The position numbers and the translations under genes are program-made. This document shows positions 8,668 through 56,007 of a stretch of 64,000 bases of DNA, one piece after another. Each line of letters opens with the position of its first letter. The stretch's first letter is position 1. Location: NCBI GenBank assembly GCA_010015585.1, contig ML975154.1, one strand, 5' to 3'. Source of the DNA: Eremomyces bilateralis CBS 781.70. Taxonomy: Eukaryota. The notes under the pieces were generated by a model that saw nothing but the letters and a program-made list of their open reading frames with translations, had not been told where the DNA came from and made no database searches.

Positions 8668-10808
8668 ATGGCCTCGGTGTCGTCTCTGGATCAGGACATG
8701 CGCAAGCTGCGTCTTGGCCGATACACTCCACAAGCAGCGAACGAAATCAGGTTATGGATTGAGGATACACTCGGGGAGAAGTTACCGCCCGGAGATTTGT
8801 TGGATGTCCTTAAGGATGGAACTGTACTCTGCAGGTAGGCATTCCGGTCATCTTCCCTATGGATCGCACCGCTGACTGCGATTGCTTCAAAGGCTAGCCA
8901 ATCTGGCCCTTCCCCCGCCCGGAATCAAATTCAAGAAATCGAACATGCCTTTCATGCAGATGGAAAACATTTCCCATTTCCTCAAGGCGTGCGAAATGCC
9001 CCCGCTCAATCTTCAGGCCCACGATCGTTTCCTCACAGTCGACCTATATGAGGCCAAAGATCCCGCGCAAGTCCTCCAGTGTATGGGCGCATTCAGTCGC
9101 GTGGCGCATTCCGTAAATCCGACACGATTCCGTACCACCATCGGCCCGAAGCGAACGGTCATCAGCCCCACGACAACAGGATCCGCGACAGGTTTCACAC
9201 CCATAAGTCCGGTGAAGGAAAGCAGTTCCAGGCCTGGACCTTCTCGTGAAATGAGCCCTACCATTACTGGCGGATCGAACTCTTCGAAGACGACAAATGG
9301 GGGAGCGAGGTCGCCGCCTTCGGTGAGTAGCTGGAGCAAAAGGAAGGATGAACATGTGACATCCCCGGCATGGAACATTGCACAATACGGTGCGTGTACT
9401 ACGCCTCTAATTAGTGATATGACACTAATATGATATAGGGTACATGGGCGGTGCTAGTCAAGGTAACCAGGGGATCGCATTCGGTGCTCGCCGGCAAATA
9501 ACGTCTGCGGCTCCTAATGTCCCATCGCTGGCCGAGAAGGAACGAAAACGGAAGGAGAAGGAGGCTGAGGATCAGAGGTTGCGGCAGCTTGCGGAAGAAG
9601 CGGAGAACATACGCCGGATCGAACGAGAAGCCGAGGAGGAGCGGATTCGCGTTGCAGAGGAGAGGCGATGGGAGGACGAGACTCGCCGACTGCGTGAAGA
9701 GGAGAAGAAACGGGTCGAACAGCAGAAAGTCGAGTGGGAAGAGCAGGAGAGGAGATGGAAAGCGGCCGAAGAAGCGCGACTGCGTGAAGAGAGAGAAGCC
9801 CAAGAACAGTTCGAAAAGGAGACCCAGAGGCCGCGTGCTCCAAGCGATGCCAAGCTGCGTGGTCAATACCTCAGCGACTACAAAAGGGAACAGGTTTCGC
9901 GATCGAACTCTCGAAACGATTCGAGGGAGAACACACTGTCTCCGGACAGACAGCGGGTGGTGGAACTCGAGCGACAGCTAGCGGAAGCAAAGGAGCGCGA
10001 GAGACAATATGAATTGGAACGAGAGGAGAAACTCCGACAAAAGCAGGAGAGCCCACAGCGCCAAAACCGTTCACGATCGCGGAGTCGTCCCAGACCACCC
10101 CCTCGAGCACCTTCGCCAAAGGATAGCGAGGTTTCGTGGGCCGGTGACGAACGAGAATATCTTCGACAGCAAGTCAATGACTATCGGAGTAAAGCCGCTT
10201 CCAACATTGGATCACACCGACCGCTGCCCGATCCATCAACTTCATCGCCGAAGCCTCCAGCACCCGGACGATCTCTTCCTGATCCATCAACATTATCGCC
10301 GAAGCCCCCAACACCCGCCCGGCCGCTCCCCAACCCATCTTCCGCACCAACCTCATCCCGCCCCCTCCCTGACCCCACAAGTTACCGCCCCAAACCCCCC
10401 CTTCCCATCTCCCGAACCGACCAATTCCTCTCCTCCCATCCCGCCCCCACCCGCTCCCTCCCCACCACCCACCAGCCCTCCGAAACCGCGCACCTCACTG
10501 CCGCCGAACAAGACGCCGAAACCGCCCGCCGCCACGCCGCGCAACAGAAGACGAAAGCTGGCGGCTGGGCCTCAAAGAGCCTGCTGGAGCGGGAGATGGA
10601 GCGCGAGCGCGAGCGGCAGCAGGAGTGGGAAGAGGCGCAGAAGGCGTCGCGGACGGCGAAGCGGGATTTGAGTGAGGGGACCGGGGAGGGGCAGTCGTGG
10701 GATGTGAATCAGTATGGGTATATGGGCGGCGATGGGCAGAATCGGGGGGGTAGTGGGATCGGGTTTGGGGCGAGGAGGCAGATTATTGGACCGAGGCCGA
10801 AGCCGTGA
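8668..10808 (+). CDS. Calponin-homology (transgelin/Scp1-like) actin-binding protein with extended C-terminus, 2 introns
   Basis: MASVSSLDQD...WIEDTLGE...LKDGTVLC|RLAN...FMQMENISHFL...FLTVDLYEAKDPAQVLQC (CH domain). Calponin-like repeats QYGYMGGASQG and QYGYMGGDGQN, an E/R/K-rich helix and Pro-rich repeats. Confidence 0.88.
10218..10400 (+). repeat. Imperfect ~51-nt coding tandem repeat (R[P/S]LP[D/N]P units)
   Basis: cgaccgctgcccgatccatcaacttcatcgccgaagcctccagcaccc / cgatctcttcctgatccatcaacattatcgccgaagcccccaacaccc / cggccgctccccaacccatct..., plus a fourth degenerate copy. Confidence 0.75.
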
Positions 10809-33068: not shown

Positions 33069-36000
33069 TCACCCCCTCAGCTTCCCCCTCTTCCAAAAGC
33101 TCGTCTTCTCCCTATCCTTTTTCTCCACCTTCGCCGCCGCACCACCATCCCCCTTCCGCTCTACCGGCGGCCCCGAATTGCGCAGGAAGTCCGCCAACTC
33201 ATTCGTCGACGACTGCCGACCCGCCCTCGCGTCCTTCGCCGCCACCTTACTCCTCCCCATCATCCCGATCATGCGTCCGCCCTCCTCGCGCGACGGCCCG
33301 GGAATCACCCCACCTTGTCCCGCGCCACGACTCGAAGGCACGCCGGCCCGTGGGGATAGCGCGCTCGGCGCGTTCCCCGCCGGCGGCTCGGCGCTGCGGA
33401 GGAAGTCGGCGAGGCTCTCTTCCTTGCGCGGCGGCGGGCGCTTCGACGAAGGGTTGATGAGCAGCTCACCGTCGTCGTCATCCTCTTCTTCGTCAGAGAA
33501 GTCGATGGCGTAAGGGTCTTTGATGCGGCGGCGGGTGCGCGGGGGGAAGCCGGAGCCGCCGGGGGGCGCGAGGGTGGCTTTCGGGGAGGGTGCGGATTGC
33601 GCGGGGGAGCTAGCGAGAGAGGATTTGTAGGGTGGATTCCCGCGAGATTGCAAGGAGGAGCGAGCAGATGGCAACAGCGGGGCCGCGGAGCCGTGGGACG
33701 GCGCGGCGGAGAAGCGGGAGTTCACGGTGCTGGCCATGGAAGTGTGCGGGGAGGCGAATCCACCGGTGGCCTCCAGCTGGCCTAGATCATCACTGTCCAT
33801 CGTCGTTCGGAACGGCGCGACCGCTCGGGGAATGCGGTGGCGGCCTTCGCCATTGGCGGCGGGCGGGCCTTGGCGTATGAAGTCGATGAGATCGGAGCTG
33901 CCATCGTTGGATGCGACCGCAGCGGATCGGGCCTCCAGGTGGGGCTTGCGTCGCGTCGGGACACTGGTTGCTGTTGCGTCAGATTGGCTGCGTGAGAGAC
34001 CCAGGCTGCTGTTGGAGGCGGAAGTGCTACCGAAGGTGCTCCTATTGGCACTGAATGTGCTGGGTTGGGGTGACCTAGCTGCCTTCATGCTGTGCCGCGG
34101 GAGTGCCGACGGATCGACCAGCGGTTGAACGATCTGCTCGCCGTACGGCCCCGTGCTGCGGATGAAATCAGCGAAGTCGCGCATCGACTCGGACTGGATG
34201 CGCGGCTCGCGGGCGAGGAGGCCGGCTTTGGTGGAGCTGGAGCTGCTCGGAGGTGCAGGACGCGAGACGGGAACCGGTCCCCTCGACTTTGAAGAACTAG
34301 TAGAAGAAGGATCCGGAGACGGAGACGACACGGGAGCCTTGCCAACAGAAGCCTTTGACGAAGGGCGAGGAGGGACAGCAGCAGGAGCATTCGTCGGTCC
34401 GCGTGGAGGCAAACTTTCAATGTCCTGCATCGCCGGCGACACCAGCTTGAACTTGACGGTGTCCTCACCCGCAACCAAGGCATCGAAATCCCTAGCCCTC
34501 GCCTCTGTGCTCTGTCTCGGATCCAGACTGCCCTTCAGGAGTCCGAAGCTCGTATCCGAGCCGTTTGTCTTGTGCAGCGTAGGCGTCGTCGTCGTGTGGA
34601 TTGACCCGGACCGACGGCCCGAGGGGGTCGACGATGCCGGTCGGTGCTGCGGGGACTCATTGATGGCAGTCTGGATCGAGGGAGCTCGAGGACGAGTGGA
34701 CCCGGCACTCGCGCTGCTACCTCGTCCGCTAGGAGCGGTATCAGCGGAGCGACGGGGAGATTCTCGGAAGTTCCTTGGGCTAGGAGCCGACGTGGGAGCC
34801 CACGCGGTAGCAGGACCCATATTCGGCGGTGAGTTCCTAGTCTGTCCGGTCGGGGTCGATGGCATGTCTCGAAGAGCTTGGCTAGCGCTTCTTGTCGCCG
34901 TCGTCCCGTCTCTACTGCTAACCAGAGCAGTCGGAGCCTGTTGCGAATGTGATGGATTCTGGGAGGCCCGATCGCTCGAGCGGCTGGGCACTGCGGGTTT
35001 TTGTTCTCCGCCGACGACATGCAGGGGCGTAACAATTCGCAAGGTCGTTCCCGTCGTGCCACTGCTTCCGCTGCCCGATGATATTGCACGTTGCGATCGG
35101 GGTCCTGGCTGGGGTGGCGCATGAAGCGGACGATCGCTTGGCGAATCGGTCCGGGCGCCCCTGCCGCCCTCAGACGGAATCGCATTTTCTGCCGCATCAG
35201 GGCCTGTGAAACGCGACCCCGCGGCGGACGCTGCACTTCTCGCAGGAAATTCGGGAGAGTCTGTGTTTCGACTCGCTGTTGCAATTACAGAATTTTCTTC
35301 TGCAGTGGCCAATGGGGCGGCAGTTGTTGCGGAGTTTTCGTTCGGGCTTGGCACGCTGCGAGGGATCGGCGGTGATACCGACGCCCTCATTCGTGCGCGG
35401 TCGGCAATCGAATCTGCCTTTTGTTTCGTCTTGCTGAAGCCCTGTTCCGCCTTAGGTGATGCGGAAGCGGGAGTCGGGATATCCGTGGTCCTCGCAACGC
35501 CGATGGCTTCGGGATCGTCCAGGGGAAGCGTTGGGGTGCTATCAATAGCAAGACCCTGGGGTCGCGCATGACCGAGCGGGGACTCCTCCGATGTTCTAGT
35601 GCTGCCCAGTCCTGCCGAAGCTGGTGCCGGCGGCCCTGGATAGGCGATATCTTCGGCAACTTCGTCGGGGAATTCCGAGATGTCGGGAGTGCTAGTATCG
35701 CGAGATTTCTTCGAGCGAATGCTGCCGGAATGCCTGGGAGTGTCGACGACCGCGGGAGGCGACGGCGGAACGCCTATAGAGACGCGCTTGATGTTCATAA
35801 CCACCGGTTCGGCCTCGTCGTCAGAGGTAATGCGGTAAGCGTCTTCAGCTTCTTCATCGGTTGACCCATCATCATCCTCTTCTGTCTTAGCCACAACTTT
35901 CGCGGCCCCTTCTTGTCCATCCACATTATCACCTCTGAACAATTCCTCCGTTGGCGTCATGAACTCCTCCCTTCCGTCATCTGTCTCTTCAAACAACGAT

Positions 36001-37421
36001 CTTCTTTCCAGCGCCGGAACGGAACTCGACCTCTGCCTTTGCACTTCCGGGCGATCCATATCGTCGTCCAACCCGAGCAACCTTGCCATCGGCAAGAAAA
36101 AGCTATGCGGCCTCGTGGGCCTCGAAATCGGAGTTGGCGCATCACTTCTCTCGTCTTCCTTCGCGTCCTCATCGTCTGTGATCTCTTTCGCGAGGCCGGG
36201 AATCTCGATCTCTCGCACATCATCTTCGCCCTCTGGCAGCGGAATATTCGCTGCGATCTCCGTCTCCGACGGCTCATGTTCGGGCAAGTTTTCGTTCACG
36301 TGCTCGGAGACATTTGAGTCTTGTCGCGCAAGGCTTCCACCGTCGACGGCCTCGGCCGTCGATGACGCGGGACTCATCGGAAGCGTCAAATGCGCGTACG
36401 TAGCCGAATGGTGAAGCGGAGAATGGATGGACGAGTGAACACTGCTATCTTGGCGGGTGCGTTGACGCCAGGTGCGGTAGAGGCGGCCGAGCGTGGAGTT
36501 GAGGGCAACCTTTTCAAGGTCACGATCCTCGACGACGATGCGGGGTGGTCTCATTTCCGGCTGCGGTTGTGGAGCGGCTGATTCGGCCACGGCGGGAGAA
36601 CGAGCTGTGGAAACGCGTCGCTTCCCGAGCACTCGATTATATGCTGCTGCGCCGGCGATGGCGAGGATTCGTTCGGCGAGGTATTCGATGATGGAGGTAA
36701 GGAAAATGGCGGACGCGCCAGAGACGAGTCCTAGACCGGAGAGGATATCCGCATTGTCCAGGTCCAAATATCGCTCTTCGTCTTCATCCTCCATTTCTCC
36801 AAGCCGGGTGTAGACCATCACTCGTAGGCGCGTTCTCTTGAAGGTTCCATCCAAGTCCCACCTCTCCGGGACTTCTCTATCTGCATCATCAAGCATATCA
36901 TCGATGGCCCTCCGACCTCCGCTCTCTTCATCTTCCTCTTCCTCTTCGGACATCAAATCCCTCAATTCCTCCTCCGCGATTGCCATCGCGTCTCTCGCCA
37001 AGCGGGGTTTCAGGACCTCGACGAACGCACCCCTTAGTCTGGCCAATCCCGGCCCTCTTGCCGCACCCAGGACTCGATAGAGAATATAATCCAAGAACGC
37101 ATTCAGCAAAGCCAGCGCATCTTCGGAAAAGAGTGCCGTTTCGCCAATTGGAGATGGGGACGTATCTCGCAGGTCGAATCGATCCCGGAGGATCGCATTG
37201 TTGGTATCCGTCACCATTTGCGAGGCTGCAGCAACGGCAACGTAGCCAGGTGGTGGGTGGACGAATTTTAGGGTGGAGTATCCATGAGGGCTTAGGACCG
37301 ATGGTCGGTCGGAAGAAATGGATGGAGCGCGGCTAGATCGTGCGTCCATTTGGTCGAATGTTGCGTCGGAACCGCGTGATCGGTGGGAGCGAGCGGGAAA
37401 GTTGTATGGTTGAGCCTCCAT
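33069..37421 (-). CDS. Uncharacterised 1450-aa protein: N-terminal tandem histone-fold-like region, long disordered S/P/A/T-rich middle, C-terminal repeated DF(L/I)R motifs
   Basis: Single uninterrupted 4.35 kb ORF. H2B-like and H2A-like segments at about aa 97-320 and four (L/F)xDF(L/I)R..P motifs near the C-terminus. Confidence 0.85.
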   Translation of the reverse strand: MEAQPYNFPARSHRSRGSDATFDQMDARSSRAPSISSDRPSVLSPHGYSTLKFVHPPPGYVAVAAASQMVTDTNNAILRDRFDLRDTSPSPIGETALFSEDALALLNAFLDYILYRVLGAARGPGLARLRGAFVEVLKPRLARDAMAIAEEELRDLMSEEEEEDEESGGRRAIDDMLDDADREVPERWDLDGTFKRTRLRVMVYTRLGEMEDEDEERYLDLDNADILSGLGLVSGASAIFLTSIIEYLAERILAIAGAAAYNRVLGKRRVSTARSPAVAESAAPQPQPEMRPPRIVVEDRDLEKVALNSTLGRLYRTWRQRTRQDSSVHSSIHSPLHHSATYAHLTLPMSPASSTAEAVDGGSLARQDSNVSEHVNENLPEHEPSETEIAANIPLPEGEDDVREIEIPGLAKEITDDEDAKEDERSDAPTPISRPTRPHSFFLPMARLLGLDDDMDRPEVQRQRSSSVPALERRSLFEETDDGREEFMTPTEELFRGDNVDGQEGAAKVVAKTEEDDDGSTDEEAEDAYRITSDDEAEPVVMNIKRVSIGVPPSPPAVVDTPRHSGSIRSKKSRDTSTPDISEFPDEVAEDIAYPGPPAPASAGLGSTRTSEESPLGHARPQGLAIDSTPTLPLDDPEAIGVARTTDIPTPASASPKAEQGFSKTKQKADSIADRARMRASVSPPIPRSVPSPNENSATTAAPLATAEENSVIATASRNTDSPEFPARSAASAAGSRFTGPDAAENAIPSEGGRGARTDSPSDRPLHAPPQPGPRSQRAISSGSGSSGTTGTTLRIVTPLHVVGGEQKPAVPSRSSDRASQNPSHSQQAPTALVSSRDGTTATRSASQALRDMPSTPTGQTRNSPPNMGPATAWAPTSAPSPRNFRESPRRSADTAPSGRGSSASAGSTRPRAPSIQTAINESPQHRPASSTPSGRRSGSIHTTTTPTLHKTNGSDTSFGLLKGSLDPRQSTEARARDFDALVAGEDTVKFKLVSPAMQDIESLPPRGPTNAPAAVPPRPSSKASVGKAPVSSPSPDPSSTSSSKSRGPVPVSRPAPPSSSSSTKAGLLAREPRIQSESMRDFADFIRSTGPYGEQIVQPLVDPSALPRHSMKAARSPQPSTFSANRSTFGSTSASNSSLGLSRSQSDATATSVPTRRKPHLEARSAAVASNDGSSDLIDFIRQGPPAANGEGRHRIPRAVAPFRTTMDSDDLGQLEATGGFASPHTSMASTVNSRFSAAPSHGSAAPLLPSARSSLQSRGNPPYKSSLASSPAQSAPSPKATLAPPGGSGFPPRTRRRIKDPYAIDFSDEEEDDDDGELLINPSSKRPPPRKEESLADFLRSAEPPAGNAPSALSPRAGVPSSRGAGQGGVIPGPSREEGGRMIGMMGRSKVAAKDARAGRQSSTNELADFLRNSGPPVERKGDGGAAAKVEKKDREKTSFWKRGKLRG

Positions 37422-45398: not shown

Positions 45399-47576
45399 TC
45401 AAGCCCCCGCATCCATGCCTCCAATATCATAGTAATAATCCTCATCTACCCCATCCCGAGTCGGCAAGACGGGCTCCTCCAGTCCGACGTCCTCGAACCG
45501 CACGTTCAGGAGGCGGATCTTCAGCCCGTAGCTACCGATCAAGTTCACGAGCTTGTTCGTATCCGCGGTGATGGGTTGCTGGTTGAGGAGCATGAGGAGT
45601 CCGTCGAGCCATTCGGATGCGAGGGTGTGAGATTGCGGGTTGAGCTGTAAGAGGACCATTTCCTTGTCACCTTGGGAGACGGAGGAGTCTTTGTGGGAGG
45701 AGGGGATGTAGCCATGGACGGTAATCTTGGTGGATGTTTGGGCGGGTACGGTAGTTTTGATGGTAGATGAGGAGGAGGATGTGGAAGGTGGGGAGGCAGA
45801 GACGTTGGAGACGACGGAGGAGACGGCGGAGAGGTCGATTTTATTGTTCAGATCGTCTAAGCCGGGCTCTTTCTCGGCCCTGCCTTCGTAATCCGCGTAA
45901 TGCAGGAACCTGCGGTTGTGGGACAGCTTGACGTACCGCCACGCGCTTGGGACGTTACGATTGAGATTGGCCTTCGTAACAGGCCCGTTTTCCGATCCAT
46001 AGCCGATGGAGTGCGGGAACCAGGCTCCCTGCAGTAAGCATCGGATGCGCTGTTCCTTGACAAATTGGAGGGCTTCGTGGTTGAGCTCCTCTCGTACTTG
46101 TCTAGATGTACCGTTAGTGCCAAATCGTGCTGAAAGAATAAGTCGGTTTACATACCGGAGGTGGTGGCCCCAAGCATCCTCATATGTCAGCTCGAGCAAT
46201 TCCATCTGCAATTCCCTGAGCTTCTGGTACTCGAACTCGGCCAATTCTTCCTCGACCTCGGCGATATCTTTCGTGCGGGATGCCTCTCCGACCACCTGCT
46301 CCACGAGGATCCGGACCAGTTCTTCGACCTTCTCGAAATCATCGGCTTCTGCACCAGTTGTCTTCCATAGGCGAAGATAAGCGTTCAGACCCGCTGTATG
46401 CAACCGAGACCAGTGAAGCAACAACGGTTTGAACGCCTTCTCAAAGTTCGTCCGCGAATCTAGCAATGTATATCGTTGAGAGTCCTCGTTGTCCGACTTA
46501 TCCACCTCGAAATGCTCGTACAATGTGCTCGTGACTGCCAGACTTGCTCGGGTGATGGGACACCGCTGTTGAAGCGGTTTGGTCGACTGCTCCAGGAGCA
46601 ATTTTTGGTATGTGTCTTCATATTTCTGGACAAAATCCGTCAAATCCATCATGCCCAAGAATCCCGTATTCTCAAACTCCCATGCAGGTGACTCCGTCTC
46701 AAAGCCTAGCCTCCGCCAGCGATCCGGAGGTGCCTTCTTGCTACCCAGCGTGCTGTCATCTCCGCCAGATTTAGATGCACTGCTTGCAACATAGAGACTT
46801 CGCAACGCTCTCCGGTGGTCCGCAGTCTCCATGTCAACCTTGATATCCCTCCATTTCCTTAACATCAACTTTGTCAAGCTTTGGAACTCCAACAACGGAT
46901 GGGCAAGATCGTGGATCGCGGTGCTCTGCATCAACATGTAGACTGCGCGGATCACGCCCAGGTCCTGTAATTTCTTTATGAACTTCGGCCATTCTCCTTC
47001 CAGGTCATTGGTGACCGCGTCGCGCATCAGTGCATTGATCAATTGCAACGAGTTGGCGCAGAGTGCGTGGTCGGCGGAGGAAAGCCGCGCGACTAGCATT
47101 TCCATGAACTGCGGATAGAGCGCGACGGCCGGTTTGAGGGCTTGGAAGCCGAAGGACCCGACTAGAGAGGCGCCTGTGTGTGGATGTGAGACGATGGCGA
47201 CGAGGATGGACATGGCGCCGCGGAGGATGTTGACCAGCGGTTGGGTGACGACCAACTCGACCGCCTGATTACAATATTAGCAAAGATCGTCTTGTAGGTA
47301 TCGAGCTTCACCCACTCGCTCAATAATCTCTTGGGAGATATGGTCCCAGCCCATGTCCAGTTCCAGCAGCCGTGAAAGCGACGTGAGACTATACGCTAAG
47401 GTGTTCCCCGTCGCTTGCAGGCAGAGGAACCGCAACTTCGGAAGGCCGCCTTCGCTGATGAACATGTCTGCGAAGGAAGGGTCGCCAATGGCGGATTGAA
47501 GCTTGAAAACTGCCATTTTTCGGACCGAGTCTTCATCGCTACCCAGCCGTGCGACGAGGTCACTAATGTTGTCCAT
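45399..47576 (-). CDS. ELMO: ELMO/CED-12 family protein with C-terminal PH domain, 2 introns
   Basis: MDNISDLVARLGSDEDSVRKMAVFKLQ, armadillo-like region, ELMO domain (WRRLGFETESPAWEF..TGFLGMMDL; CPITRAS), FVKEQRIRCLLQGAWF, PH domain YVKLSHNRRFLHY...SEWLDGLLMLL, KIRLLNV. Confidence 0.92.
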
Positions 47577-48898
47577 GGTGTCGACCCAATGGCTGAGACA
47601 GTTAGTTTCGGGGAGCTGTGTGAGGAGGAAGAGAGTAGATTTGATGCGCAAATGAAAGGAGAGACTTCTGGTAAGGGACGGACGACTTGATCATAAAAGA
47701 TTGACGTGTACAGCCACGGGAAAGGCTTTGAATATTCAACCCAGTTCAGCGAAGTCGGAGAAAGAGAGCATTTACTGCTTTGACAAAGGATGAGTATCTG
47801 GAGTGGACAAACACCAACACGTCAGGGTCTCACCTCTCAGGGGTATGCTTCGGTTAATATTCGGCTTATATATGGCAATTCTTCGGTTCTGACCCCAGAA
47901 TAAAGTTGCTGGAGACAACAGGAACCTGGAGGGGACCTTCGAGTTTCTGGAGATACAAGCACTGAACTTCATAGTTCTGTTGCCAACCTCCCAATCCATA
48001 CGTCTCAATCTCTGGGAATGGCTTGATCTGACATCCTGAGCTAGGTGATTCATTGTGAGATTTCCAATTTGCCATGTCTCTGCCCTACCGTCTTCTCACT
48101 ATTTCGAATAGGTTCAGCTTGGCCTGCGCCGGACGGACTCCCGAGACCCTCTCCGCTACTCGTGAACCGCTCTGTGAAGCTGTTATACAATACCAAACGC
48201 GTTTTCTCGTGCCTACTCCCATAGAAGTCCATAAGGATCCTAAGGTGTCGGAAGACAGGATCTGACTCGATTCATATCCCTCCGCCTCGTCTCGCCCTCG
48301 ATACTCGATAAGGCGTAGCGCCAACCGATCAACCCCCTTATACATCTCTTGACTACTCCCTTCGATCACGAGTCAGGCAAAAGATTATATGGCACATATG
48401 TTATGGTGTGAATTAATATAGCACTTAGAAGCGACTCCTATGACCGGGATTTGCTAAGGGTTGGCCTGCATCACGAGCATAGAGGTGCTATCGAGGGAGT
48501 TCGGCATCTGCCCCTCGTGCTTCTACTGCTGCAGATTGGACCTCTTGTTTTTATAAGAACTGGATAAGAGGTGCCTCTTATGAGTCACAATCTAGTGAAT
48601 TCCTGGCTGTTACTATGCTTTGATGTCAGCACAACTTTGGGCCCCAACATTCTGACTACTCCCCTTCGATCATTTTCCAACTTTTGCTGTTCTTTTATAT
48701 TACACTCTACCCAAGCATGAGAACTCATCATCTCCGATCTTTTCTGGCCATTCTCTGAAACACCGCGAACCTACTGTGAAGTGAGTAAAGCACCTGCTCT
48801 GCATTCCATGGGTAGCTGGCTGTCCCTGCTATCGCCTCCCTTTGAGAAATCATTTAGCAAAGCATGAACAACGTATACTGATTTTTTGATAGTAAACA

Positions 48899-51800
48899 AT
48901 GGACGGCGAATCCACACAAGTAGCTACCCAGCAGATGGTGGATCCTCGCCGAGTTGGGGAGGAGAGCTCTGAACTGAACCCATCAGAGCAGGCGGACATC
49001 ATCTGTACCCTCATCGGAGGCTCGACAGCAGCCTTTACAGCGATCCAGATTACAGCATCTGAACGGCGGCAACATGTGCTGCTCAAAAGTGATTCAATAT
49101 CTGAGGGGAAACTGTTACCAGCAGACGCTAATGAGCATGAAACACTCATTTTAGATCGAGATGGCACTCCTAACGCAGATGCCTTGGCTTTGAGATTTTC
49201 TTCTAAGACCATCAATCCTCTACTTGGATTTGTTTTTGGGAGGAACTCCGGTCAGAGCGATATTATCCTAGGACTGGACAGTCTCAACCGCACGAGCAAC
49301 AAACATTTTCGGATCTATCTGACTGAAGATGGAGTCCTGATGCTGGAGGATATATCTACGAACGGTACTATGGTAGATGAGACCGTCCTCCGCGGGAAGC
49401 TCTACCCACGGGAAGATAAATCTCGAATGCTTTCCCATGGCTCTGTCATCAAAATCCTTTCGCCGAAACCTGAAGATGAGATCCGATTCATGGTTCGGTT
49501 TCCTCCCCTATCAAGCGGCGCCGTCAATGAAGAGTATCACAGAAACCTCAACGCGTACCTTGAGAAACTCAGAGAACTCGAACTGGAACAACATGGAAAG
49601 GGAAAGGAAGACATCTTCGGCCATGGCGAGGGAAAGCGACTAGAACCTGTTGAGACCCGACTAGCTACACGCCCTTCCATTGCCGGAGCCCCGAACACAT
49701 TCGGCATGGTATGGGATGGAGGTGCGGAATACAATGTCATCGGAGTCCTTGGCAAAGGTGCATTCGCAACTGTATACCGGCTGGCAAACAAACGAGATGG
49801 AAGCCTCCGTGCGGTCAAAGAGCTTGAAAAGAAACGGGTCATCAAAAACGGGCAACTTGATCAACGGCTCGACAACGAGATGCAAATCATGAAGGAATTG
49901 AACCACCCGAACATCGTGCAATATGTCGACTACCTCGATTTCGACAAACATCTCTATATCATCATGGAGTATGTGCCGTTCGGGGATCTCCAAGGATACC
50001 TTCAGATGAAACGCTATCTGAAGGAGCCGCTGGCGAAGCAGATGTCCCGTCAAATTCTCAAGGCGTTGAAACATCTGCACCAGAAGATGATCACTCACCG
50101 GGATATCAAACCGGACAACATTCTCATCTCTTCGTACGATCCGTTCACTGTCAAGTTGACCGACTTTGGACTGTCGAAGGTGGTTAAAAACGACGAGACG
50201 TTCCTGAAGACGTTTTGCGGAACCCTCCTTTATTGCGCGCCGGAAGTGTTCCCGCACTACGATGCCCATGTCATTGGCCAGGGACAGAAACGAACCCGCC
50301 ACGGCCCGACGCCATCGAAATACCATTCTTACAGCCAGTCCGTTGATATCTGGTCCTATGGAGCGGTGCTGTGGACGTCTCTTTGCAAGCGGCCTCCGTT
50401 TGAGGGCGTCATGGACGCCAACGGTGATGCGATGCTTAAGAGGATCATGGAGACGCGATTAGACACAGGTCCTCTCGAGGCCCTTAAAATATCCGATGAA
50501 GCTATCGAACTTCTGGAGATGATGCTTGATACCGATCCCGCAAGTCGACCAACGGAAGTCGAGTGCCTCCGACATCCCTGGCTGTACGATCCAAATGATC
50601 CCGTGGAAGAAGAAGAAGCCGGCCTTGGTGCCATTGAAGAAGTGGATGAGTCGCATGAAGCTCTGTCCCAAGCCCAGGAAGATATGTCTCAGCTGAGCAT
50701 TAAGCGTGAATTTGGAGTCGATAGGGATAGAAATGGCATCGCAGGAGCCGGTGCAAGAGTGGTTGAGGAAGACTTTGCTGTGCCTCATTCGAAGAGAGTT
50801 CGCATCGATCCATTGATACCTCGCAATCAGTATCGTGATCCTTCCGAAGGGGTGGATTCCAGCGCCGAACCGTCCTTCGACGACAATTCTAGGATCCCCG
50901 AAATTGTCGATAGTCATGTGCGAATGCCGGTGCCCCAGAAACCGACACGTCTATTTGGTGAAGTCGGGCGGCGGCCAGCACTTCAAAGTTCCGGATTGCT
51001 GGGTGCTAATCCACCAAGGATAATTCACCAACAACCACAACCAAATTCAGGTCAAGAACTTCCTACATCCGACATCACTCAGTTCGACCGCAATTTGCAG
51101 AAGAACGAATTGCACACGCAACAGCCACCAGTTCCGAGTAACTCACAGGCTCAATCAGTAACGGAAAGCCTTCTTGGAACAGAATCCATGGTTCGGGAAC
51201 TGAATATGGCGTCTCCTCAATCACTCCCACCCGATTCCGGCCCCGACACCAATGAACCTACGACACCAAATGAAACAGGCGAAGCTACCAGCCATTCTGG
51301 AAGCAACGGCGTGGACGACAATACCCCAAGGCCAGCGAACTTCAGCCGCCAGATCAGCCTGCCTCTGCCTCCGTCATTCTTCTTCGACCCCGATGACCCA
51401 AGCACTCACAACCTCGAATATGCATCTCACATCAGCGGGTTCGATTATCTCAATGACTCGAATGCAGCTGCCATCGCTGCAGCTGCCACCTTTTCATTAA
51501 AGGTCGGGGACTCGTTCCCTTCCACCCAGGGCGGCTCTCAAGAACTCGCCGACCCGTCCCAGCACCTCCACCCCGCTTCCTCCCCTGCGCCGGAATTCAT
51601 CCGCCCTCCTCCGCGCCTAGGAATGCTCCGCTCCTCCACCGGATCGATCAAGAACATTGCCATTCGGCTCCAAGACCGGGTCACCAGCTGGGGCCGCCTT
51701 CCCTCCAACACCATCGTATACGAGGATTCCACCGATACGCGCATCCCCAAGACTGGCATCATCATCTGGTTCGCGGCGCCCGGCATCGACAAGATCGACC

Positions 51801-52084
51801 AGAAGGGCGGGGACTGGACGAAGTTGCCCGGGCTGCACACCATCCTCACGACGGATTCGCAGAACGGCATCTGGGTGAACGGAGTGTGTCTGCGGTCGAA
51901 GGATGCGGAAGGGAATAAGCTGTATGGCCGGCTGTACACCGGGGACCGCATCACCGTGTTCAAGGGGCGAGAGTCCTACCTGGAGTTTAATTGCGAGTTC
52001 TATCACGGATCAGCGGCGAAGGAGCGGCCGAAGAATGAGAGCCGGTTCCAGATTCTCACTGCATCGAACACGCAGCCAAAGTAG
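48899..52084 (+). CDS. RAD53: Checkpoint Ser/Thr kinase with FHA-kinase-FHA architecture (Rad53/Cds1/Chk2 family), 1061 aa
   Basis: N-terminal TQ cluster (STQVATQQ); FHA1 (FVFGRN...SNKHF...DISTNGT); kinase motifs GKGAFATV, AVKEL, HRDIKPDN, DFG, APE, DIWSYG; FHA2 (SWGR...SQNGIWVNG). Confidence 0.88.
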   Translation: MDGESTQVATQQMVDPRRVGEESSELNPSEQADIICTLIGGSTAAFTAIQITASERRQHVLLKSDSISEGKLLPADANEHETLILDRDGTPNADALALRFSSKTINPLLGFVFGRNSGQSDIILGLDSLNRTSNKHFRIYLTEDGVLMLEDISTNGTMVDETVLRGKLYPREDKSRMLSHGSVIKILSPKPEDEIRFMVRFPPLSSGAVNEEYHRNLNAYLEKLRELELEQHGKGKEDIFGHGEGKRLEPVETRLATRPSIAGAPNTFGMVWDGGAEYNVIGVLGKGAFATVYRLANKRDGSLRAVKELEKKRVIKNGQLDQRLDNEMQIMKELNHPNIVQYVDYLDFDKHLYIIMEYVPFGDLQGYLQMKRYLKEPLAKQMSRQILKALKHLHQKMITHRDIKPDNILISSYDPFTVKLTDFGLSKVVKNDETFLKTFCGTLLYCAPEVFPHYDAHVIGQGQKRTRHGPTPSKYHSYSQSVDIWSYGAVLWTSLCKRPPFEGVMDANGDAMLKRIMETRLDTGPLEALKISDEAIELLEMMLDTDPASRPTEVECLRHPWLYDPNDPVEEEEAGLGAIEEVDESHEALSQAQEDMSQLSIKREFGVDRDRNGIAGAGARVVEEDFAVPHSKRVRIDPLIPRNQYRDPSEGVDSSAEPSFDDNSRIPEIVDSHVRMPVPQKPTRLFGEVGRRPALQSSGLLGANPPRIIHQQPQPNSGQELPTSDITQFDRNLQKNELHTQQPPVPSNSQAQSVTESLLGTESMVRELNMASPQSLPPDSGPDTNEPTTPNETGEATSHSGSNGVDDNTPRPANFSRQISLPLPPSFFFDPDDPSTHNLEYASHISGFDYLNDSNAAAIAAAATFSLKVGDSFPSTQGGSQELADPSQHLHPASSPAPEFIRPPPRLGMLRSSTGSIKNIAIRLQDRVTSWGRLPSNTIVYEDSTDTRIPKTGIIIWFAAPGIDKIDQKGGDWTKLPGLHTILTTDSQNGIWVNGVCLRSKDAEGNKLYGRLYTGDRITVFKGRESYLEFNCEFYHGSAAKERPKNESRFQILTASNTQPK

Positions 52085-54117: not shown

Positions 54118-56007
54118 CTATAGACCCCTCCAGGGGAAACAATAAGGATCTTCCGTCGTCGCAAAGTAGCCGGCACTCATGTCCGGCACACTCGGATCGA
54201 AGGGGTATGTGTTGGAGAACCCATACCCCGCAGCCGCCTCAGGTACCATGCCGAAATCGACATCGAACTGCACCGTGTCGAGCATATCATCACTCGACTG
54301 CGAAGGATAGGCCTCGCCCATCTCGAGCGGCGATGATTCCCCCTCCACGCCATCATTTCTCTCCTCCACCGGATCGACCGTCTCATAAATCTCCTTCATC
54401 CATTGCGACTTCAGCAGATCCATCTTCGGCCAATCGCCCCCGCCCTTCCCCCCGCGCTTCTCATCGCGCTTGCTCTTCCGCCCCCGCTTGCGCGGGTTGA
54501 AATGCGCCCGCCGCAGATGCGCCGCGCAGTTGTAGTACGCGTGGTACTTCTTGCCGCCGGTGCAGTGCTTGCAGTTCGCGAGGAACTTGCCGTCAGGGGA
54601 GGCATCGATGGTGACCCAGACGCGGCGGCGGGTGGAGTGCACGCGCTCCTTGTGGCGGCGGATTTCGTGCTCGCCGCGGAAGCCGTCGGGGTACTCGTTG
54701 CAGAGGTCACATTGGAGCTTTGGGTAGGAGGGGCGGATGTAGGGGACTTTGGTGATTTCGGCGACTTCTTTGGAGTGGCCGTCGCGGGAAGTGATGCGCA
54801 TCATACGGTGGTCGGAGGCTTCTTTGATGGTGACGGGTTTTTGGTCGTTAGCAACTTTGGCAGCAATGGGTCTTGAGGACTGCATCAGTTGCTCCTGGTG
54901 TCGCAGGGACAACCGCGACTGGGTCGGGTTGCCTGCATCATTGCGTTGAGCTGTGTTTCGTGATTGCACGTTGTTGCAAGGTGTGAAGGATAAGGGTGAC
55001 TGGTGCGGTGACACACCAGTCATAGGGGAAGAGAATTGCGCGAGTGAAGATTGCTCTTCACCAAAAACATCAACATGACTAAACAAAGGAACGTCGGAAC
55101 AACCCAAAGGAGGTTGTTCTGCAGTAAAATTGAAATCGGAGATGTTCGAGAAACTCGAGTCACTCCGAACCATTGTAAGATCAGCACCACTAGTGGTGCT
55201 GGTATTCCAACTGTTATCTCGAGTCATTTCACTCGACAAGGGAGATGCATCTGTCAGCTCTAATGCTGTTGAGGTGCGTGAGAGGGGTAAACTTTGCATC
55301 TTCATTTCCATTGTCATCAGAGGTGTGCAGCCAAACTGCGACACCTCGAATTGAGCAGCAAATTGCTCGGTTGGGTTATCAGCCCAACATGATTGAGTGG
55401 CTCCACTGGAGGTGTCCTCCATTGCGTGGATGTACTCAAGTGGGCTATACTCAGTAACATCACATACTGGCAGCATCGACTGTTTAAAGTCAACGACGCT
55501 GTACTCATCCGCGTTGCTCAACGAGTATGAGCTAGATCCGTCGTCGGAAAAGTTGGCCGGAGCGGTGCCAGGAAATGACGGGATACATGGCGAAGCCGCC
55601 GCCGTGGTATCTATGGCAGCCGTCGATGAGTGAGACCTCAACATCGCATCGTCGACCCATTGTGGCCGGGAAGGGAGGGCCGAATGACTCTGGTGTCGGA
55701 TCATGGAGGGGGCGCCGTTATAATCCTGGTCCTGAGAATTAGCCTAAGGGGAGACATGACCGAAGCCCGGGATGTTTCGTACAGGAGACCCGATGCTGTT
55801 CATCGAAGCCATGGGTGGCATGGTCCGTGGAACCGTCAAAGATATCGACCGTCTTGATGGGTGGCCATACGGTCGAGTGTGTTCGAGGCCGTTGGAGGAT
55901 GGAGAGAGGTATGTTCGACCCTCGTGGATAGTCGCGAGACTTGTTGAGTGGTCCAAAGGGAGCTGGCAGCTTTGTCGCCGGGTGGAGTTCGTCATCAAGG
56001 TCGCCAT
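54118..56007 (-). CDS. Putative transcription factor with atypical zinc-finger region (KLAP1-like fungal family); intron 55732-55782; true start may lie further upstream
   Basis: CDLCNEYPDGFRGEHEIRRHKERVH...CKHCTGGKKYHAYYNCAAHLRRAHFNPRKRGRK...RGGKGGGDWP...WMKE, preceded by an S/T-rich region. Confidence 0.8.

Follow-up and report, generated by a model that had tools for sequence, protein, structure and literature searches.

In the 64,000 nucleotides of contig ML975154.1 (assembly GCA_010015585.1) of the fungus Eremomyces bilateralis CBS 781.70 that we analyzed (hereafter the window), one gene on the minus strand encodes a 1450-residue protein that is predicted to carry two histone folds in a single chain near its N-terminus. 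According to the structure model, residues ~60–330 of this protein are an intramolecular handshake pseudo-dimer, with an H2B-like fold followed by an H2A-like fold, i.e., a double histone fold (DHF), and this assignment is supported by profile matches and by a confident structure model. On the evidence presented below, the DHF is probably an SOS-like docking and regulatory head on a phospho-regulated disordered scaffold, in a protein family of the Pezizomycotina.

A double histone fold in a single-exon gene

The gene is a complete coding sequence, i.e., an open reading frame (ORF) that runs uninterrupted from its ATG start to the stop codon in the ORF list and translation. Because full-length homologues start and stop at positions equivalent to its N- and C-terminus when aligned, we consider the single-exon gene model sound. 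A sequence-only reading had proposed a fused H2B–H2A doublet at 36462–37133 on the minus strand, and this interval translates to residues 97–320 of the ORF, with both stretches on which the reading relied present letter for letter. The interval it flagged does lie inside the DHF, but is too short to be the domain: in the model, α1 of the first fold starts at residue ~63 and αC of the second ends at ~329, which places the domain at ~36432–37244. The coding sequence and the elements of the DHF are as follows.

33069..37421, minus strand: complete single-exon coding sequence, 1450 residues plus stop
36432..37244, minus strand: DHF domain, residues ~60–330
36921..37235, minus strand: first histone fold, H2B-like, residues ~63–167 (model helices α1 63–81, α2 100–121, α3 126–136, long αC 139–167)
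36855..36959, minus strand: acidic inter-fold linker, residues ~155–189 (net charge −13, vs a median of −7 over 372 family domains)
36435..36854, minus strand: second histone fold, H2A-like, residues ~190–329 (model helices α1 190–204, α2 235–274, α3 299–307, basic αC 312–329)
36720..36803, minus strand: acidic insertion in loop L1 of the H2A-like fold, residues ~207–234, LGEMEDEDEE... (family median charge −12)

Both folds thus sit within one 1450-residue chain, unlike the core histones, which are separate polypeptides of ~130 residues. Ahead of the DHF, residues 1–59 are rich in Ser, Pro, and Arg and include one lysine only (K52), without a Lys-rich tail, in agreement with the earlier remark that basic histone tails are missing.

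Profile searches identify an H2A-like and a more diverged H2B-like fold

We compared the DHF to the PDB through profile searches, and inspected the best 60 matches of each longer list. When residues 1–340 were used as a single sequence, 27 of the 30 matches at E ≤ 10 were H2A or H2B–H2A chimeras, aligned at H2A α2, although the best histone E-value was only 0.076. Once family information was added, the histone signal became significant: a whole-family profile (75 relatives) yielded 199 matches at E ≤ 10 with a best E-value of 3.2e-4, and the best 60 of these were all H2A, H2A.Z, or chimeras aligned in their H2A half. When the profile covered the second fold alone, it matched 206 different PDB entries by sequence at E ≤ 1, with a best E-value of 9.8e-5, and here too the best 60 were exclusively H2A, H2A.Z, or H2B–H2A chimeras aligned in the H2A half; within one such chimera, the H2A half scored 24.0 bits vs −1.1 bits for the H2B half. 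In the profile alignment, the α2 signature of the second fold lines up with H2A residue for residue, including two glutamates (E246 and E250) that are invariant in an alignment of 46 full-length members from across the classes of the family. We take the H2A α2 glutamates to which these two residues align to be part of the H2A acidic patch.

The first fold gave a fainter signal. Its profile (27 sequences) had three PDB matches at E ≤ 10, namely an H2B (E = 0.3), an unrelated GTPase (E = 0.76), and a Caenorhabditis elegans H2B–H2A chimera aligned in its H2B half (E = 1.4), and its single sequence had no histone match in the PDB. Both H2B alignments run from α2 through α3 to αC in the expected register, at E-values that are not significant. 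The resemblance to H2B followed by H2A that had been read by eye was borne out with significance for the H2A half. For the H2B half, the matches agree with that reading but stay below significance, and the H2B-like fold is much more diverged than the H2A-like one. In a local hhalign comparison of the two folds, α2 was placed on α2 with no better than a P-value of 0.037 and a probability of 1.4%, and the two halves therefore did not arise by a recent duplication. Finally, a Pfam scan of the 1450-residue protein returned no family at E ≤ 10, PF00125 (Histone) and catalytic domains included, which agrees with the earlier claim that the protein has no guanine-nucleotide exchange factor or other catalytic domain. 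A Pfam scan of 57 relatives likewise found no histone family at E ≤ 1.

Structure prediction yields a handshake pseudo-dimer

We modelled residues 60–340 with AlphaFold2, using a 75-sequence family alignment and no templates. The resulting model had a mean predicted local distance difference test (pLDDT) score of 86.1 and a predicted template modelling (pTM) score of 0.84, with pLDDT ≥ 90 at 160 of the 281 residues. Its topology, as assigned by DSSP, is α1-L1-α2-L2-α3-αC two times over, with short strand bridges in L1 of the first fold and L2 of the second. The folds are separated by a helix-containing acidic linker, and an insertion with short helices precedes the very long helix 235–274. Beyond αC of the H2A-like fold the model is disordered, with pLDDT < 50 from model residue 270 onwards.

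The two modelled folds superpose on H2A–H2B as one rigid body, i.e., they pack in a handshake. In a Foldseek search against the PDB, the best match had an E-value of 6.1e-3, with no match at E ≤ 0.001, but each of the 30 rows listed (to rank 38) had a probability of 1.00 and corresponded to a single-chain H2B–H2A construct, to the histone domain of SOS1, or to the doublet of Melbournevirus. Similarly, giant-virus histones or H2B/H2A fusions made up 12 of the 13 best rows from a viral structure library. The sequence-only reading had likened the region to SOS and to giant-virus doublets, and named modelling followed by Foldseek as a way to check this: the profile matches agree with it, and the model superposes on exactly those structures.

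An acidic domain ill-suited to DNA

Across 372 family domains included in our charge tally, the whole DHF had a median net charge of −19 (range −32 to −6), and the E. bilateralis DHF had a net charge of −14. With this net charge, it does not present the strongly basic DNA-binding surface of core histones, nor does the protein carry Lys/Arg-rich N-terminal tails on separate chains as core histones do. The linker between the folds, already described as acidic from the sequence alone, is indeed so, and within the acidic L1 insertion the family alignment showed L207 and G208 to be invariant, and E211, D214, and E215 to be near-invariant, with a core of LG-D/E-M-E-E-E-D-E almost invariant across the family. 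Basic islands are limited to two, both in the H2A-like fold: α1 (charge +4) and αC (family median +6), the latter (GRLWRTWRKR) being amphipathic with near-invariant tryptophans.

Because the DHF is acidic, carries acidic insertions, comes without lysine-rich tails, and is followed by disorder after αC in the model, it is very unlikely to wrap DNA or sit in a nucleosome. Acidity of this kind speaks against a role on DNA as part of a nucleosome, without favoring either of the two options of the sequence-only reading, a chaperone or nucleosome mimic or an SOS-like module. Overall, the DHF descends from, or closely imitates, an H2B–H2A pair rebuilt for an off-nucleosome job.

Comparison with known double histone folds

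A 2026 review, "The double histone fold", includes in its Table 1 the following cellular families: M. kandleri-type archaeal doublets, the Sos H domain (animals and Capsaspora), ABTB2/Cca3 (animals), SPT3 (animals, fungi, and protists), bacterial DHFs, and HSIH-DHF (animals) (PMC13088155). SPT3 is the sole fungal DHF family named in the portions of this review available to us (PMC13088155), and the available text of a companion paper does not contain the words fungi, fungal, yeast, or Ascomycota (PMC13520046).

A close analogy is the H domain of SOS1 (PDB 1q9c and 3ksy), likewise an N-terminal, H2B-like then H2A-like DHF in a non-chromatin protein. The review describes it as a cytosolic pseudo-dimer of an H2B-like and an H2A-like fold, without nucleic-acid-binding electrostatics, that serves intramolecular or protein–protein interactions (PMC13088155). 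The structure-based identity of the fungal DHF is only 14% to SOS vs 19–23% to real H2B–H2A, and SOS was not among the best 60 of the 199 and 206 PDB matches of the two profiles. In SOS, the H domain is followed by DH-PH-REM-Cdc25 (RasGEF), whereas the fungal protein has no Pfam family at all, and the large acidic insertions in the linker and L1 further set the fungal DHF apart.

Compared to canonical H2A–H2B (chimeras 6w4l, 6k00, and 8zvy), the fungal DHF is one chain, has a net charge of −14 where histones are strongly basic, and combines acidic insertions and a 1100-residue disordered extension with an absence of Lys-rich tails and of any evident docking domain. Giant-virus doublets (Marseilleviridae/Melbournevirus, 7n8n and 9cvt, and Pithovirus relatives) form nucleosome-like particles on DNA, as stated in the entry titles, whereas the fungal DHF is acidic and only 14–16% identical to them. 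ABTB2/Cca3 and Cca3S resemble it in having a diverged H2B-like plus H2A-like DHF within, or as, a non-histone protein, with about 25–30% identity to histones (PMC13088155). These proteins have no solved structure, and differ in being animal-only and in carrying ankyrin and BTB domains. SPT3, a component of SAGA, likewise combines two histone folds within one chain of a fungal protein, but the DHF described here is not a pair of the SPT3/TFIID type. Taken together, the family resembles SOS, ABTB2, and the viral doublets in placing H2B ahead of H2A in a single chain, but does so in another kingdom, with acidic insertions of its own, and without a catalytic domain. A bold reading would be that the fungal DHF, SOS, and ABTB2 domains share one ancestor; if true, a non-chromatin H2B–H2A module would already have existed in the opisthokont ancestor.

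A disordered tail with conserved short motifs

Downstream of the DHF, residues 331–1450 contain 14.6% Ser and 11.7% Pro, and order-promoting residues make up 16.6% of the tail vs 31% of the DHF. Conservation in this region was evaluated from the 46-member alignment, and motifs were counted in 305 full-length homologues. The conserved elements are listed below.

36189..36254, minus strand: conserved island IPLPxxxDVxEIEVPGLA, residues ~390–411 (D401 invariant; L395, P396, E404, I405, E406, P408, and G409 ≥90% in 46 sequences)
36015..36113, minus strand: basophilic phosphosite-like motifs R437xxS440 and R464xRSxS467xP469 (14-3-3 mode-1-like)
34422..34499, minus strand: conserved island FDxLIxSxETIxYTLTPxxMRD, residues ~975–1000 (T988 and L993 invariant; T992, T994, P995, and R999 ≥90%)
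34146..34211, minus strand: DF motif 1, residues ~1071–1092, ...SMRDFADFIRSTGP (from the alignment)
33792..33929, minus strand: DF motif 2 and downstream block, residues ~1165–1210, SDLIDFIRQGPP...RIPRAVAPFR (R1165 and G1185 invariant)
33456..33545, minus strand: basic run, R1299-x3-P1303-Y1304 (PY-NLS-like, i.e., resembling a PY-type nuclear localisation signal), and acidic run ending LL, residues ~1293–1322
33381..33419, minus strand: DF motif 3, residues ~1335–1347, EESLADFLRSAEPP (F1340 and L1341 invariant)
33165..33206, minus strand: DF motif 4, residues ~1406–1419, NELADFLRNSGPP (from the alignment)
33072..33116, minus strand: basic-aromatic C-terminal tip ...SFWKRGKLRG (family consensus F-x-RRKK)

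In addition, the N-terminus ahead of the DHF includes a conserved block, RRSRxxSxSSDRPS, in the same 46-sequence alignment. The RxxS motif at 437–440 was found in 45 of the 46 homologues and an RSxSxP-like site at 464–469 in 36; by the mode-1 consensus, these would be putative 14-3-3 sites. The four DF repeats (DLxDFLRxxGPP), at positions 1082, 1177, 1336, and 1408, follow the pattern [ST]x[DE]-L-[AI]-D-F-[LI]-R-x-x-G/E-P-P. They are acidic-aromatic, two-turn helices with a Gly-Pro-Pro end, and are candidate cap-anchor-like peptides. R1299, D1302, P1303, Y1304, and A1305 were invariant in all 46 sequences, and the R-x3-PY site, with basic context before it and an acidic run after it, was present in 296 of the 305 full-length homologues; this site is a putative PY-type nuclear localisation signal. 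An aromatic plus tribasic tip ends 252 of the 305 homologues, the last 25 residues having a median of 6 K+R vs 2 D+E, and this tip is a putative membrane-binding basic-hydrophobic element.

The C-terminal 381 residues (33072–34214, minus strand) also provided a lead in the ESM Atlas, namely a cluster of 1527-residue hypothetical proteins (rank 28) with a score of 0.83, below the 0.9 threshold, in which 21% of members carry the Pfam 38 family PF27837 ("Fyv8"). On this weak lead, the DHF-protein family may be the mould counterpart of yeast Fyv8. Yeast Fyv8 (YGR196C; PF27837) is similarly disordered over most of its length (89%) and phosphorylated, and its function is not known (PMC6634968, PMC3945295). 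It is recorded as cytoplasmic in Table 2 of one of these (PMC6634968), was pulled down by the FHA1 domain of Rad53 according to Table I of another study (PMC2064674), and its gene falls within a genetic-interaction cluster of glycosylation and cell-wall genes according to a third (PMC5427489). Separately, the idea of an eisosome organiser of the Seg1/Sle1 kind, i.e., a folded N-terminal targeting region combined with a polybasic C-terminus, was dropped; these proteins are described as coiled-coil proteins, and for Alternaria no homologue of Seg1 was reported (PMC3413353, PMC6916069).

Possible functions of the double histone fold

From the combined analysis, we favor a function in which the DHF would resemble the SOS H domain and serve as a rigid head for docking and regulation, and not as a DNA binder. 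The ~1100-residue Ser/Pro-rich disordered scaffold would then use its conserved short motifs to recruit partners and set location, the candidates being the four DF mini-helices, the PY-NLS-like site, the RxxS and RSxSxP sites, and the basic-aromatic tip. The likeliest binding sites on the head would be the α1–α2 grooves, as used by histone chaperones on H2A–H2B, and the ligand could be either the protein's own DF motifs or those of a partner. Phosphorylation adjoining the basic patches would switch binding. H2A–H2B chaperones occupy the α1–α2 grooves through an aromatic anchor combined with an acidic cap (PMC6101569). The DF motifs are candidates for such ligands, although they are spaced differently from the published cap-anchor motif (PMC6101569).

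Two other functions would each be clearly less probable than an SOS-like docking head. In the first, the protein might mimic histones in the nucleus, or act there as a decoy for their partners: brought in by its PY-NLS-like site, it would engage the H2A–H2B machinery (Nap1, FACT, importins, or H3–H4 surfaces) and act as a buffer or regulator of histone traffic or of chromatin factors. The R-x3-PY site with its basic run, found in 46 of 46 aligned and 296 of 305 full-length homologues, would provide the import route, although the PY-NLS reading is a putative one from the motif pattern. The DHF is closer in identity to real H2B–H2A (19–23%) than to SOS (14%), its α2 signature aligns to H2A with E246 and E250 invariant, and its DF motifs, with acids plus hydrophobic residues, look by eye only like chaperone- or activation-type peptides. 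However, histone chaperones put acidic peptides on a basic surface that is largely lacking in a DHF of net charge −14 (family median −19), and the invariant acidic L1 insertion adjoins the place where H2A–H2B contacts DNA. Lys-rich tails are also absent, no H2A docking segment is evident after αC, and yeast Fyv8, if that weak lead is right, is recorded as cytoplasmic (PMC6634968).

No better placed, and in our estimate similarly doubtful, is a membrane-proximal module of the SOS kind, in which αC and the C-terminal tip would bind acidic phospholipids and the protein would act as a cortical scaffold in cell-wall, polarity, or endocytic processes, with the DHF as a lipid-gated autoinhibitory head. 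The SOS histone domain itself binds acidic lipids. In the fungal family, αC has a median charge of +6 with near-invariant tryptophans, the aromatic plus tribasic tip recurs in 252 of 305 homologues, and Ser-Pro and RxxS sites lie beside basic patches, as expected of an electrostatic switch. The weak Fyv8 lead (score 0.83, 21%) and the reported FYV8 cell-wall cluster (PMC5427489) point the same way, but the Atlas score is below its threshold, which makes membership of Fyv8 putative. Moreover, the protein was found to have neither a domain that binds lipids nor a transmembrane segment or a signal for lipidation, the DHF is acidic overall, and the basic stretches could equally be nuclear localisation signals.

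A further step down in probability is a self-contained chaperone-and-histone mimic, with the DF mini-helices as cap-anchor-like ligands of the protein's own head. Here a phospho-switch would convert a closed, autoinhibited form into an open, multivalent one, and back, the open form networking with other copies or with partners; this seems to us rather improbable. It is highly improbable that the DHF would be no histone fold at all, i.e., a generic helical bundle forced onto histone templates by AlphaFold and the aligners, with a chance match to H2A α2, a possibility to be read next to the family-level profile matches and the template-free model described above.

A large family in Pezizomycotina, often annotated as Flo11

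Next, we evaluated the distribution of the family, for which the best 120–150 rows of each homologue search were listed, and taxonomic statements rest on the named matches among these. With the DHF as query, 1147 proteins were matched at E ≤ 1e-3 among 7985 candidates scored in a 90%-clustered collection. At 50% identity, the DHF matched at least 487 clusters, of which 447 reached E ≤ 1e-10 and 324 reached E ≤ 1e-30. A Sordariomycete member as query had 1622 matches among 8000 candidates, and a Penicillium member had 689 among 8000. All named members among the matches listed belonged to the Pezizomycotina, including Dothideomycetes, Arthoniomycetes, Sordariomycetes, Leotiomycetes, and Eurotiomycetes, along with the lichen orders Thelocarpales and Vezdaeales. 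This bears on the distribution in fungi, on which the sequence-only reading had called for a search, within the scope of the rows listed. Family proteins are about 1200–1700 residues long, and the ESM Atlas queried with the DHF returned unnamed Ascomycota clusters only (scores 0.80–0.82).

Among the matches listed, members are annotated as hypothetical, as uncharacterised, or with the UniRef name "Flo11" ("flo11 protein", "FLO11-like"). A Flo11-type cell-surface adhesin is nevertheless the least credible of all readings, to the point of being negligible: many relatives bear the name, and Ser, Thr, and Pro are abundant in the tail, but no Flo11 domain or any other Pfam match was found, the N-terminal 30 residues are hydrophilic (mean Kyte-Doolittle −1.29), the lack of any hydrophobic stretch outside the DHF leaves no signal peptide or glycosylphosphatidylinositol (GPI) signal, and the single folded part is predicted to be an intracellular-type histone fold. 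We therefore rejected the label as wrong, in view of the missing Flo11 domain, signal peptide, and hydrophobic end.

Several gene models of ~1700 residues from Pleosporales join the DHF protein to a D-lactate dehydrogenase (PF01565, PF02913), and others of normal length simply carry the name "D-lactate dehydrogenase". These joins are probably merged neighboring genes with a propagated name, and not a real fusion; no D-lactate dehydrogenase gene was found among the 20 window ORFs scanned.

The sequence-only reading knew of no functional description for this protein, and we also found none in literature and annotation searches: no paper on the family was retrieved by locus tag, "Flo11", histone-fold, or Fyv8 terms, supplementary tables being outside the scope of these searches. 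The family is thus uncharacterised, although InterPro or AlphaFold DB may already flag a histone fold.

Genomic setting

The 64-kb window has the appearance of an ordinary fungal chromosome, with DNA ligase, MFS transporter, PRMT, Rav1, ELMO, FHA-kinase, and Ars2 genes, among others (Pfam scan of 20 ORFs), and nothing relevant to the gene was found when the window was scanned for tRNAs, tandem repeats, and Rfam families. Two neighbors lie in a range of 8–11 kb from it, an ELMO/CED-12 protein with a PH domain (45402–47276, minus strand) and an FHA-domain protein kinase of Rad53/Chk2-like architecture (48896–52081, plus strand). With respect to the pull-down of yeast Fyv8 by Rad53 FHA1, the proximity of an FHA-kinase gene is most likely a coincidence. 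Antisense and out-of-frame ORFs of 130–331 residues overlap the Ser/Pro/Ala-rich tail on both strands (window positions 33736–35284), and look like by-products of a GC-rich (about 0.6), low-complexity coding sequence instead of genes. Elsewhere, a 541-residue ORF (54121–55743, minus strand) matches DUF7896, a domain of unknown function, at an E-value of 6.8e-27. A 459-residue ORF without Pfam match (9429–10808, plus strand) contains a 51-bp tandem repeat (10217–10339; 2.4 copies, 75% matches), and is probably a Pro-rich repeat protein.

Implications for histone-fold evolution and fungal biology

Outside chromatin, double histone folds occur rarely and are little understood, and only SOS has a strictly confirmed cytosolic role. 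As far as the available portions of the recent review indicate, the family described here would add a large and genetically tractable fungal example beside SPT3 (PMC13088155). It could show how an H2B–H2A pair becomes an acidic interaction module, and whether this occurred once or repeatedly. The finding also corrects a propagated "Flo11" mis-annotation, and offers a first structural handle on a conserved protein to which no function has been assigned, and which is present in many moulds associated with plants or humans. It is of interest for histone-fold evolution and fungal cell biology.

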